Assembly (NCBI GenBank): GCA_964016885.1
Contig: CAXHJY010001274.1
Location: 62,001 to 126,000 of the forward strand
Source: Eledone cirrhosa
Taxonomy: Eukaryota
Length of the DNA: 64,000 bases
Direction of reading: 5' to 3'
Shown: one piece after another, positions 1 through 56,600 of the stretch
How positions within the stretch are numbered: the first letter of the stretch is position 1
How the letters are laid out: each line of letters begins with the position of its first letter
The notes under the pieces: model-generated
Told to the model about the DNA's origin: nothing
Database searches by the model: none
The model's input: only the letters and a program-made list of their open reading frames with translations
Made by a program: the position numbers and the translations under genes

Positions 1-150
1 TCAGACAAGAATTTCTATAGAAATTTAAACAGAACTTACTCAGCAAGTTATACGCGTGTGTCCATCCCAGAGATAGATAGATAGATAGATAGATAGATAG
101 ATAGATAGATAGATAGATAGATAGATAGATAGATAGATAGATAGATAGAT

Positions 151-2581
151 AAATTTCTTTATTAGCCACGAGGGCACAAAAGAAGGGGACAAATACAAAT
201 GGGGAGTTTACATACAGGTATATGAAAATAAAACTATTAATAAAACAACAAATAACAATTGAAATCCCCAATAGGGGGAGGTGTTACACAGGAGTTGTAC
301 ACACCGCGAAAAAAAATGTACAACCCTCATCTCCAGAAGCACCAAGAGTGAGTACTCCCTTCCTCTCTTCCTCTTTTTCCTCAACCTACAGGATTATATA
401 GAGAGAAGACCCAACCGCTCGGGCCATCTTTTCCACATTCACCCACCTTTTATAAAACTTGCTGGGGTACAGCCCCTCTCTCTCTCCATCCTGGCTCTTC
501 TTCTAAAGTGGTATTTGAAAAAAAAGAATCAGTTGTTCGCCGGAGAGAAAGGTGTCTGACCTCAGCCCTTTTAACATCGTCCACCATACAACCTCTTTCA
601 CCATAGCCATAACACATAGAAAAACCGCCTCTCCTTCGTTTTTGAAAGCGGATGGCGGTTTGATCATGACAATGGACTCGGAGGTCAACTGGATTGGTCC
701 CAAACGCGACATTAGTCGTTCTACATAGCCCCAAAGGTCGGTAACGTCGCGTACGCATCTCGGACAGATCTTTTTTGAAGTGTCTCTGCCCGGGCGCTCG
801 TGTCTGTAGAGCTTGTCTCGAACTGGTAGAGCTCCGCGGTAGCACTGCCAGGCCAGGGACTTTTGGAAGTTGTCCATCGGTCCCGGGCGGAAGGTCCTAC
901 CGAACAGACTGGCCAGTTCGCCCTCCACTACGCCTAGAGTTTCTCCGAGCGCGGCGTCGCACTTGCTGCTGACCAACCCTCTATAGAATGACGAAGTGGA
1001 GTCTCCACTGATCGCCGGGTCCGTTTGCCAGAGGACTGTGAGCGCCTGAGCACATTCGATGTGCCAGTCACCCAGTTTCTTCGGTCTTTGCTTGACTCAG
1101 TACTGCAGCTCGGTCAGCGAGACGAGTCGTGGGAAGGCTCGCCTCACGAACGGGGCCCACACCGGTTGTCCGGTGAGGAATACGTGGAGGTGCCGCAGCC
1201 TGAGCGCGTGTTTCCTCATCGTCAGCTACGGCATACCCAGCCCTCCGTTTGAAGGGTGTTGGCAGCAGATGGATCTTCTCACCAAAGGATCCCGTTTCTT
1301 CCAAAGGAATTGGAAGACCACGCGCTCCATTTTGGTGAGCGTTTTGGCTGGACAAGGCGCGACGGTCAAGCGGTAATAGATGACGGACGCTATAAAAGTG
1401 TTCGCCACCTCCGCTCGACCTTTCAAGGATAGTTTGCACTCGGCCCACTTCTGGGTGAGCGCAAACACCTTGGCCGTCACCTCGTTCCAGTTCTTCTCCA
1501 CCTGGAGGTCCGGACCAAACCAGACCCCGAGCAGCTTTACCGGTCCTTCCGTCCAGCGTCCGACAACGCCATCGGAAGGCATCGGTTTGCCTTTCCACGT
1601 TCCGAGTTGCAAACCGACGTATTTGTCCCGGTTCAGCTTCGCTCCTGTGAACCTTTCGTATTCCTCCAGTAAGGTGCCGACCTCCCCGATTTGCGAGGTG
1701 CTCGACACCATTACTGTCATGTCGTCGGCGTAGGCCGACGCCTCTTTTCGCAGTCCCGGTTCCAAAGGGATGCCCTGCAATAGCTCCAACTTCCGCAGTA
1801 GTGGCTTGAGAGTCATTACGTACAGAAGGGAGAAGAGAGGGCATCCCTGTCGGGTGGATCGCGTGATATGGAACGGCTCCGAGAGGTAGTCGTTCACCTT
1901 GACCCTTGAGCAGATGTTGCTGCTGTGTATTCCAGCAATCCAGCCCCTGAACACGGGTCCGAAGCCTGCCGCCTCGAGCACCGCATCCAGGTAACGATAG
2001 TCAACCCTATCGAAAGCCTTAGACTGATCCAAGTTCATCAGGGCCCCACCGAAGCCGGGTTTAGACCCAACCGTCTCTATGATGTATCGCATGAGGTGGA
2101 GGTTGTTGTGTATGGACCTGGTCGGGATTGCGCATGTTTGCGCTTCTCCCACCAGGCTTTCGACGTCAAGCGCCAACCTCTTTGCCAACACCTTGGCCAA
2201 CAAGTCCGGCATTGCAACGTAAAATTCGTAGGGTAGACCGTCGAGACCTGGAGATTTGCGTTTGCCGCATTGGCTCAGCGCGTCCCCTATCTCAGCGGCC
2301 GAAATCGGCCTTTCGCAGAACTTCGCCTCGCTGTCCGAGAATCGCGGCAGGCCGTCGAGGTATGGACCGAAATCCATAGCCCCTCCCGGCGCGTCGCCCT
2401 GCCCGAACAGCTGAGCAAAGTGCCGCTGAAAGGCCGCGCACATCTGCTTCGACTCACGTATCACGTGTCCGTCTTGGTCCTTCAAAGACCGAATCGTGAA
2501 CTTGTTGCACTTTTCGCCTCCGTCACTCGGGCCCAGCTAACAGCTTTGACTCCCTCGGTTCCCAGAGCAGGTATTTTTCTC
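151..2581 (-). mobile_element. 5'-truncated Tx1-like copy A (RT to 3' end, internal deletions) between GATA tracts
   Basis: ORFs 1226-2485 (SPGLDG, DQSKAFDRV, QGCPL, YADD) and 503-976 (CYRGALPVR, CPRC). 3' end AATAAAGAAAT-(TATC)n; GATA-like tract resumes at 2582. Confidence 0.92.
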
Positions 2582-53604: not shown

Positions 53605-56600
53605 CCGTCTGCAAGTCCAGGTGGCAGGTTAGGTCACATAAATAAAGCAAATGAAACACAAACTCACAGTCTAAAACGTAATACAAATCCAAAATGGCTG
53701 CAACCGAAGTAACACACGTCTACTATCAATGATATATAGATAGATAGATAGATAGATTGACAGACAGACAAATAGACAGTCATAGAGACCGACACACAGA
53801 CAAACAGAGAGGCAGGCAGACATGCAGACAGACACAGATAGATAGAAAGATATATAGATAGAGAATTATTATGTGTAAGTTATATATTAGAGTACAAATT
53901 AGATGCTTGTATCACATAATGGAAGCAATATTTCATGAACTTGTACAATTTGTGATTTTTGCTTGTGAGCACGCATGTTTTCTTAATAAATAGAGATGTT
54001 TATAGGCAACAGACATGGGAACATACAGGGGAATGAATAAGATAAGTAAAATTAATTGGTTTTAAACCTGATATCAAAACATAGTCGTCATCTTACTTTT
54101 CCTGGAATATGCGTTACACATTGAAATTAAGGATTTATAGCATTGGCTCACGCAATAGACTCAGTTTTAGGGAAACCGACAAATGACTTAATCGGTCAAA
54201 AGATTTAACCAATCACTTACTTTATCCAGGAATGTTGGTCTTCCTAGTTCACTCTTGAACATATTTGACTTTGGTTGAACCACAAAATCTCCCATATCCA
54301 CTGGTGAGTGCTTTCTTTGTGTCCATTCACTTAATTCATCTCTTCCAAACAGAATCGCTTAAGTTGCTCTTAACGTCACACATAGCAACAATTGAACTAT
54401 ATATATATATAACTTGATTGTATTGACTTGTTTGTATTTTCGTTGTTGTAGTGGCTTTTGTGGTATTCTTTAGCAATTTGTCACAATTTTAACGTATATT
54501 TATTACTCTAAGATTTAACTTATCGATTTATCGATATCATCTTATTGAGGGCTTCGTGAAAGCTTCTGAGGATTGTTCTTTCGAGGGATGCTAGGCGTAG
54601 CTGAAACTTCGATTTTACTCACTATCATTGTTATATACATACACGTACATTTCTCTCTCTCTTAATGTATAAAAAAGACAGTCGTTTCCTCTACTTTAGG
54701 TTCTGAGGTAGACGTGTAAATGCCCTGAGGTCTTTTGTTTACAAACCGAAAAATAGATCGTGTTAAAACTTAACGTTCCCCGAAAATACCCGTACACGTC
54801 ACATCACAATAATAATTATAACTTTTTTTAACATAGGTCATGGCCAAATATTAAAAGATGGGTTTAGTCGATTTAAATCATTTCCACTTCTTCTCGACTG
54901 GTACATATTTTATCGACACCGAAATGATAAAAGGCACAGTTGACCTCGAATCGTAAAGAGCCGCAATAAATATCGCATACCATTTTTGTCAGACGTTCTA
55001 AAGATCAGGCCAATGCACCCTCGTCGTCGTCGTCGTCGTCGTCGTTGTCGCCGTCGTCGCCGCCGTCGTCGTAGTAGTAGTGGTAGTGGTGGTGGTGGTG
55101 GTGGTGGTGGTGGTGGTGGTGGTGGTGGTGTTTGGTAGCAGTAGTGGTGATGGCGTTGGTGGTGGTGGCGGTGGGTTTAGTAGTAGTAGTGGTGGTGGTT
55201 GTGGTATTGGTGGTGGCGGCGGCGAGACGGCGGGGTTGAAGGTGAAGGTGGCGTAGATTATTTCATTAGTACATATTTATTAATAACGAAGCGATCGCTA
55301 ATATATCGTAATATATCGGTAATACGTCTTAATACATTATACAGAAACAACAAAACAACCTATATTAAAACAATATCAACTTATGGGTGAACAATTGAGG
55401 ACGGTCAACGTAATTTATGTTCTTCAGATCTTTGTAAGCTAATATAAAAATGGTTGTGCTCTCTATCAAAGAGAAATTAAGTTTTCTACCTTCACCCCAC
55501 TTCTACAAATTATAGCCATATTAACAATATTGACGTGATATTTCATCGCAAAATATCATCTATTAGTATATTTGTTATTTCCGATATTATTATATTAGGC
55601 GGTAACTTCGTGATCGAGTCTTCAATGAATATTTATATGTTATTGTGTAAGTATTATCATAAATATGTTATTATACAAGTACATATGTATGCATATATGC
55701 GTGTATATGTGTGTATATATATATGTACATACACATATATATGCATTTATATATATATATATATATATATATGTGTGTGTGTGTATGTGTATATATATAT
55801 ATATATATATATATATATATATATATATATATATATATATATATATTTACATATATACATATATACATACATATATATATATATAATTACATATATACAT
55901 ATATACATACATATATATATATATAATTACATATATACATATATACATACATATATATATATATATATATATATATATATATATATATATATATATATAT
56001 ATATATATATATATATTTACATATATACATATATACATACATATATGTATTTATATGTATATATATATACATATATACATATATACATATATACATACAT
56101 ATATGTATTTATATATATATATATATATGTGTGTGTATGTATATATATATATGTGTGTGTGTGTATATATATATACATACATATATGTATGTATGTCTGT
56201 GTGTATATATGTATATGCATATGTGTGCGTGTGTATACATATATATATATGCACATATATATATATACACACACACATATATATGTATTTATGTATATAT
56301 ATGCCTATACATATATATATATATATATATATATGCCTATATATATATATATATATGTGTGTGTGTATGTGTGTGTGTGTGTGTGTGTGTGTGTGTGTGT
56401 GTGTGTGTGTGTGTGTGTGTGTGTGTGTGTGTGTGTGTGTGTGTGTGTACATATATATTTATATATGTATATACAGTGAAGATGCATGACTTGTCGGTTA
56501 GGGAGTTCGTCTCATGATCGCAGGATCGTTAGTTTGATTCCCCGCCGGAAAAATGTGTTGTAGTTGAAATTGAAAAGCCAGCCATGTCACACAGTCGCGC

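Follow-up and report, generated by a model that had tools for sequence, protein, structure and literature searches.

Target-specific families are well represented among the Tx1 group of retrotransposons without long terminal repeats (non-LTR retrotransposons). The accessible text of PMC4494074 lists (TC)n, (TTC)n, (TTCC)n/(TTTC)n, U2, U5, 5S, satellites and transposons as Tx1 targets, and takes a family as target-specific when more than 20% of its flanks are of one type. Microsatellite-targeting elements named in the accessible part of PMC3812793 are Waldo, Mino, Kibi, Koshi and Dong. Here we describe a lineage of long interspersed nuclear elements (LINEs) found in a 64,000-nucleotide stretch of the Eledone cirrhosa genome (contig CAXHJY010001274.1; C1301:62001-126000), which we call the window. 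The genome is 3.0 Gb in size and rich in microsatellites.

We consider it probable that this is a young Tx1-like lineage of several subfamilies that inserts in one orientation at TC^TAT(C/A)TAT and duplicates about 19 bp of the target, likely by means of a nick by its APE endonuclease domain and likely with pairing of a read-through RNA. The fixed 3' end, the absence of poly(A), the single orientation, the site logo and the duplication can all be read directly from the copies.

Insertion sites in the window and genome-wide

The window contains six related elements, all on the minus strand and all with tracts of GATA (as read on the plus strand) at both ends, as an earlier note based on the window alone had claimed. 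All six are real, but a seventh, full-length copy, whose 5' end occupies the left edge of the window, had been overlooked; it extends over C1301 ~56346-62070, and its ORF1 (595 aa) and ORF2 (1145 aa) are both open. Note that copies 1-4 form a head-to-tail array, so that three of the six 5'-junction tracts are the 3' tract of a neighbor and are not independent, and that two of the tracts (2582-2620 and 53731-53776) are short or degenerate. The window copies terminate in AATAAA followed by 6 nt (8 nt in copy 6) and TATCT, with no poly(A), again in agreement with the earlier note. The pairwise identity among copies 1, 2, 3, 5 and 6 is 62-78% over the last 370 nt; by blastn, copy 1 is 77-87% identical to copies 5 and 6.

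To sample the subfamily of copy 5 (subfamily A), we used as query an exact 3'-end 34-mer of this copy, excluding the repeat. It has 1,320 matches genome-wide (654 forward and 666 reverse), of which 796 run on into AAATCTAT. The first 100 consecutive listed matches, all on chromosome 1 (C1; L031-L110 and L282-L301), were analyzed as a sample. After the 34-mer, the element ends with AAATA or AAATC in 98 of the 100 copies, and the five bases beyond the end are TATCT in 84, TATAT in nine and other sequences in seven; poly(A) was found in none of the 100. On the 5' side, TATCT occurs within 30 nt of the junction in 84 copies (63 of the 67 full-length and 21 of the 33 truncated ones), compared with 3.3-3.6% for 30-mers drawn at random from DNA outside the elements, and the opposite-strand AGATA in only two. 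Two or more TATC units are present at 77 of the 5' junctions and 61 of the 3' junctions (0.4-0.5% in the null), both well above the 20% threshold for a target-specific family, although only 43 copies have at least three units at both ends. The 3' end of another family member lies directly in front of 27 copies.

The other subfamilies were covered by a degenerate pattern, which gives 13,519 3' ends family-wide. Orientation was counted on the 6968 forward ends, because the forward-strand listing has one row per site: TATCT follows within 4-11 nt in 6002 of them and AGATA in five (nine when both strands are counted). The single orientation claimed in the earlier note thus holds relative to the repeat, while the chromosome strand shared by the window copies is a matter of chance, as the 654/666 division indicates. 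Neither a general lack of GATA at 5' junctions nor an equal use of the two orientations, which that note had named as signs against targeting, was found in these samples. The 3' pattern of copy 6 matches the window copy only, and its subfamily is unsampled genome-wide.

Duplications in the 100 copies are of three kinds: non-repetitive in 33, repeat-only in 44 and not detectable in 23. The non-repetitive ones are 13-27 bp long (median 19), and they identify the repeat as a target present before insertion rather than a tail made by the element itself. When the 33 sites are rebuilt, they give TC^TAT(C/A)TAT, with the counts T31, C30 ^ T33, A32, T33, C27, T33, A27, T33 and a weaker TATC periodicity further upstream. 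The duplication begins at the element end; of 40 informative cases among the first 80 copies, 33 start exactly there, so that no extra tail units were donated. As many as 20 of the 33 rebuilt sites hold two or fewer TATC units and seven hold five or more, although this class of duplication is biased to sites near the end of a tract. Taken together with the 43 copies that have at least three units at both ends, this means that the target is a short motif and that a long (GATA)n tract is unnecessary; (TATC)n is favored because it repeats the motif. The GATA specificity proposed in the earlier note therefore survives as targeting of TATCT, but not as a need for a long tract.

Two further patterns in the tracts were considered and dropped. 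An insertion bias to one tract end (the left side is longer in 58 of 80) is expected from the duplication itself, and growth of tracts with copy age was not seen: the 3' tracts are longer in the younger end variant (median 13 vs 7 nt).

All of the 40 scored copy 5 matches are identical over 342 nt and are thus very young. In subfamily A, 67 of the 100 copies are full length, a share far above that usual for L1-type elements. In some cases, independent copies have the same 5' truncation point (L032 and L297; L105 and L292; L041, L074 and L301; element positions 971, 2754 and 4532-4537), which suggests that truncated source copies were mobilized in trans. Two copies that lie 227 kb apart, L091 and L094, have about 350 nt of one non-TATC 3' flank in common, the result either of another repeat inserted at the end or of transduction.

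Proposed insertion mechanism and alternatives

In the mechanism that we propose, the APE domain would nick the strand that reads GATA, with the first nick at 5'-AGATA^GA-3' and the second about 19 bp away. This step is very probable. The 3' OH at the nick would then prime reverse transcription. Since the motif occurs every 4 bp in (TATC)n, such tracts collect most insertions, and the duplication leaves TATCT on both sides of the element. In addition, the element end and the duplicate together rebuild the target, which gives rise to head-to-tail arrays like that of copies 1-4 and 7.

The transcript, in turn, may read through into the flank and be polyadenylated there, so that flank-derived bases could pair with the primer on the nicked strand; this pairing would keep poly(A) out of the new copy. 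Polyadenylation cleavage takes place 10-30 nt downstream of AATAAA. In the present elements AATAAA is only 6 nt before the end, and cleavage would thus fall in the flanking TATC. On the strength of this spacing and of the absence of poly(A) from all copies, we regard the read-through, the polyadenylation in the flank and the primer pairing as reasonably likely, with less confidence than the nick. Annealing of read-through RNA to the target is documented for R2Ol in the accessible text of PMC6530143.

A related idea, that the flank is heritable within subfamily A ("target memory"), is not supported: the four flank labels are unclustered on the copy tree (12 changes vs 13.3 when shuffled). The last element base does cluster on this tree (20 changes vs 30.6). 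The tree contains 87 of the 100 subfamily A copies, excluding 13 that are shorter or rearranged.

The alternative that survives best is that the endonuclease alone sets the site, and that reverse transcription starts unpaired at the exact end of an RNA that is either not polyadenylated or trimmed. APE domains, such as those of Tx1L, R1Bm and TRAS1, are able to read sites of nine bases, the length of our logo; moreover, the flank type is not inherited on the 87-copy tree, and a match between the last element base (A or C) and the target is not required. However, unpaired initiation usually gives ragged ends, whereas 98 of the 100 ends are identical with no bases gained or lost, and AATAAA is kept 6-8 nt upstream of the end in every subfamily seen. 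We regard this alternative as possible but rather unlikely.

A second alternative is that the element itself encodes TATC as a repeat tail, in the manner of L2, CR1 and RTE, and that the 5' tracts are the tails of neighboring elements. Indeed, three of the six window junctions and 27 of the 100 genomic 5' junctions are the 3' end of a neighbor, and one to three bases could be element-encoded, since the first T past the end is present in 99 of the 100 copies. Nevertheless, TATCT is also found in the 5' copy of the 33 non-repetitive duplications, no extra units are seen in 33 of the 40 informative cases, and the 3' tract is only 1-5 bases long in many copies. Furthermore, sister lineages with a similar end continue into ATT or a minisatellite that matches their own 5' flanks. 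The self-encoded tail is thus largely refuted, and we give it very little weight. Finally, loose insertion into AT-rich DNA, with copies merely surviving in microsatellites, is hardly credible: the genome is very rich in microsatellites and nine of the 100 copies are at TATAT sites, but the single orientation, the base-exact phase, the youth of the 40 identical copies and the fidelity of three relatives to three different repeats all speak against it.

Several points weigh against the proposed targeting of TATCT by nick and pairing. The sample consists of the first 100 matches on one chromosome, selected by an exact 3' 34-mer. The 44 pure-repeat duplications are uninformative on the nick, and the 23 copies with no duplication comprise 15 of the 33 truncated and 8 of the 67 full-length ones; L060 and L061 represent one site in duplicate. 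At their ends, two of the 100 copies run into (TC)n and two others share an unrelated flank, and 12 of the 33 truncated copies have no TATCT at the called 5' junction. Some copies carry later insertions or deletions, and a small number of the automatic junction calls (for example, L069) are open to doubt.

Relatives on other targets and protein architecture

The lineage is not uniformly GATA-specific, as had been supposed in the earlier note, since a nested subfamily is found in a 72-bp minisatellite and a sister lineage in (ATT)n. In 12 of 39 family-wide loci, the end is followed not by TATC but by ACTCT(A/G)TAT of the minisatellite, and all of 20 further copies, on C2 and C3, have the same target, with the minisatellite also on the 5' side. 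All 32 copies are in one phase of the 72-bp unit. This subfamily has 327 matches, and the minisatellite pattern has 20,406, in arrays. Full-length copies start with about 60 nt of unit-like sequence, so that each insertion rebuilds most of a unit; the listed copies on C1-C3 are near chromosome ends. A 3.4-kb ORF2 DNA tree of 22 copies places the subfamily among the TATC-type subfamilies (100/100), and monophyly of the TATC-targeting subfamilies is rejected on this tree by the approximately unbiased (AU) test (p 4.3e-10). The reverse transcriptase (RT) protein tree is indecisive on this point, keeping TATC together in 16% of bootstraps, and three rows labeled as TATC in the DNA tree have imperfect flanks.

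The ATT sister lineage, which was first noticed in the flanks of L042 and L094, has 7,251 matches. ATT follows the end at the same offset in 30 of 30 copies, and at least three ATT units are present at 16 of the 20 5' junctions that were called; the other four probably include miscalled ones. At least two 5'-end types occur, and there is a further ATT-flanked relative in the flanks of L335 and L346. Within this radiation, at least two changes of target have taken place, to (ATT)n in the sister and to the 72-bp minisatellite in the nested subfamily.

One might suppose that the co-transcribed flank acts as an RNA guide among loose nicks, and that a copy which had landed in the minisatellite founded a lineage tied to this target, with no change in the recognition hairpin of the endonuclease. 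The nesting, the single phase in 32 of 32 copies and the target-like 5' head fit this idea, as does the fact that the minisatellite site shares only TCTAT with the TATC-type site while the hairpin region of the endonuclease (EN) domain has the same sequence as in the TATC relatives. Against it, the EN domain has 12 other, private substitutions, including G116W just after the catalytic Tyr motif, and the flank type is not heritable within subfamily A. We consider the RNA guide doubtful.

Changes of APE target in site-specific LINEs are usually studied between elements that are too distant for residue-by-residue comparison. Here, three targets are used in one genome by relatives that are 73% or more identical in RT, with open ORF2 in 14/67, 4/19 and 2/20 copies. 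Since each has open ORF2 copies, swaps of domains and of RNA ends can separate the roles of protein and RNA, and the group is likely to be a ready test case for target change. In total, subfamily A, the degenerate pattern and the ATT sister amount to more than 22,000 3' ends. At this abundance, many GATA and ATT microsatellites of the host are interrupted and duplicated by the lineage, a point of importance for the design of markers and the annotation of repeats. Gene-delivery work could also take an interest in a compact integrase system directed at a neutral repeat.

The proteins were examined mainly in copy 5 (Table 1). The layout is that of the L1 group, with an ORF2 that contains an N-terminal APE, an RT and a C-terminal zinc domain and a separate upstream ORF1. 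The APE catalytic positions of EN align with those of the human L1 ORF2 EN, and target site duplications and 5' truncation (33 of 100 copies) are further L1-group traits; the poly(A) tail of the L1 clade proper is present in none of the 100 copies. A CCHC zinc knuckle in ORF1 is a feature of the Tx1 clade, and ORF1 of copy 5, which has no Pfam match, contains one (CX2CX4HX4C) as read from the sequence. ORF2 of copy 5 has a small in-frame RT deletion, most open siblings having 1145 aa; an ORF2 of at least 1100 aa is kept in 14 of the 67 full-length subfamily A copies. Among database proteins, the nearest are unnamed ones at 67% and then at 38-44%, ESM Atlas matches are to unnamed APE-RT clusters only, and a single-sequence AlphaFold model of EN has a predicted local distance difference test (pLDDT) value of 35, too low for use. 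Similar elements are also present in contigs from four runs of three organisms.

In the trees, whose backbone support is weak, the lineage lies apart from plant L1 and groups with relatives of which three are U2-inserted, Keno-like elements. Based on the architecture and the U2-inserted relatives, rather than on named Tx1 references, it may be described as Tx1-like. Descent from a U2-targeting ancestor was considered but finds no clear support in the trees. Among 80 metagenome relatives, none is close (maximum 43%) and none has a TATC tract of at least 16 nt in at least five units; three sit in U2 small nuclear RNA (snRNA) genes (L142:5815-5977, L160:15-132 and L169:5786-5960). Two other relatives have a U1 snRNA gene on the 3' side (L144, with U2 at 72-263 and a U1-like start at its end, and L148:5010-5150), possibly representing an APE lineage associated with U1 or snRNA clusters.

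As for the rest of the window, positions 9485-9575 hold its sole long GATA tract with no adjoining element. Open frames at 5769-6638 (+) and 7808-8392 (+) have no Pfam match at E 0.1; by eye, the first resembles a GIY-YIG fragment of Penelope and the second a C-terminal fragment of RTE.

Table 1. Elements, tracts and reading frames in the window, and loci of the two relatives
Feature	Position or loci	Strand	Remarks
Copy 7, 5' end only inside window	1..70	-	full-length, extends past left edge; neighboring stretch L254
(TATC)20 tract	71..151	-	3' flank of copy 1 and 5' flank of copy 7
Copy 1, 5'-truncated	152..2581	-	covers RT to 3' untranslated region (UTR); carries an internal deletion and broken frames
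Degenerate TATC tract between copies 2 and 1	2582..2620	-	
Copy 2, 5'-truncated, most divergent	2621..3503	-	
TATC tract between copies 3 and 2	3504..3574	-	
Copy 3, 5'-truncated	3575..3946	-	
TATC tract between copies 4 and 3	3947..4009	-	
Copy 4, 3' UTR only	4010..4143	-	one base off end of copy 3
TATC tract, 5' side of array	4144..4209	-	independent 5' junction
TATC tract, 3' flank of copy 5	31509..31555	-	
Copy 5, full-length young element, subfamily A	31556..37346	-	1,320 exact 3'-end matches genome-wide
ORF2 of copy 5, 1141 aa	31773..35198	-	APE endonuclease PF03372, RT PF00078, zf-RVT PF13966 (just below cut-off)
ORF1 of copy 5, 575 aa	35232..36959	-	one CX2CX4HX4C knuckle read from sequence
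TATC tract, 5' flank of copy 5	37347..37434	-	
TATC tract decaying into TGTC, 3' flank of copy 6	47892..48043	-	
Copy 6, full-length with broken ORFs, ~80% to copy 5	48044..53730	-	5' boundary approximate
Short TATC tract, 5' flank of copy 6	53731..53776	-	
Minisatellite subfamily	L221, L222, L227-L232, L235, L240, L246, L247, L262-L281		
ATT sister lineage	L302-L351		

Comparison with known systems

The literature compared comprises the accessible parts of PMC4494074, PMC3812793, PMC4640811, PMC13282606 and PMC9115989. No GATA- or TATC-targeting non-LTR element was found in the literature searched, although Repbase/Dfam and Fig. 3 or the supplements of PMC4494074 could hold one; the string "gata" is absent from the text of PMC4494074, Fig. 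3 and the supplements being outside this scope. In Octopus vulgaris, the accessible part of PMC13282606 reports 13 recently active L1-Tx1 families, of 80 in all, and its text and supplement, as searched, mention no target preference for them. The present lineage may be among octopod L1-Tx1 annotations of that kind.

The target U2 provides one likeness. The U2-inserted relatives L142, L160 and L169 resemble Keno and Tx1-Mar, and the U2 site reads GTAG and then TATCTG, so that its TATCT is the same five bases as those after the nick in the TATC-targeting lineage. This is a lead only and may be a coincidence. A Keno-related group has moved to another target according to the accessible text of PMC4494074. 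The U2-inserted relatives differ in having about 26-30% ORF2 identity and, in L142 and L169, an end in an A-run, and the trees, with their low backbone support, do not place them as sister to the lineage. Inspection by eye of the 3' flanks of the 100 copies shows TATC or AT-rich repeats rather than U2.

Dong belongs to the R4 clade and has a restriction-like endonuclease. Its target, (TAA)n in the accessible part of PMC3812793, is the same repeat as that of the ATT sister. Unlike Dong, the ATT sister has an APE domain and an RT 66-73% identical to that of copy 5, and the match in the repeat is thus convergent. In R1Bm and SART1, target-derived RNA bases pair with the nicked strand. R2Ol likewise obtains a precise 3' junction by such pairing (accessible text of PMC6530143), as we propose for the present lineage, although R2Ol, R1Bm and SART1 belong to other clades and have other targets.

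Further parallels are Kibi ((TC)n), Koshi ((TTC)n) and the crocodilian (TTCC)n/(TTTC)n Tx1 families, likewise microsatellite-preferring non-LTR elements with APE and RT; as far as the accessible parts of PMC4494074 and PMC3812793 go, neighboring families among them differ in repeat unit, as they do here. The present lineage is set apart by its target: TCTCT follows only two of the 100 ends and TTC none, and (TATC)n is reached through a nine-base motif, with relatives in (ATT)n and a minisatellite. Microsatellite-targeting Tx1 elements are already known, and the (TATC)n target is apparently unlisted; what is new is the definition of the target at the level of single bases, together with two close relatives on other targets.

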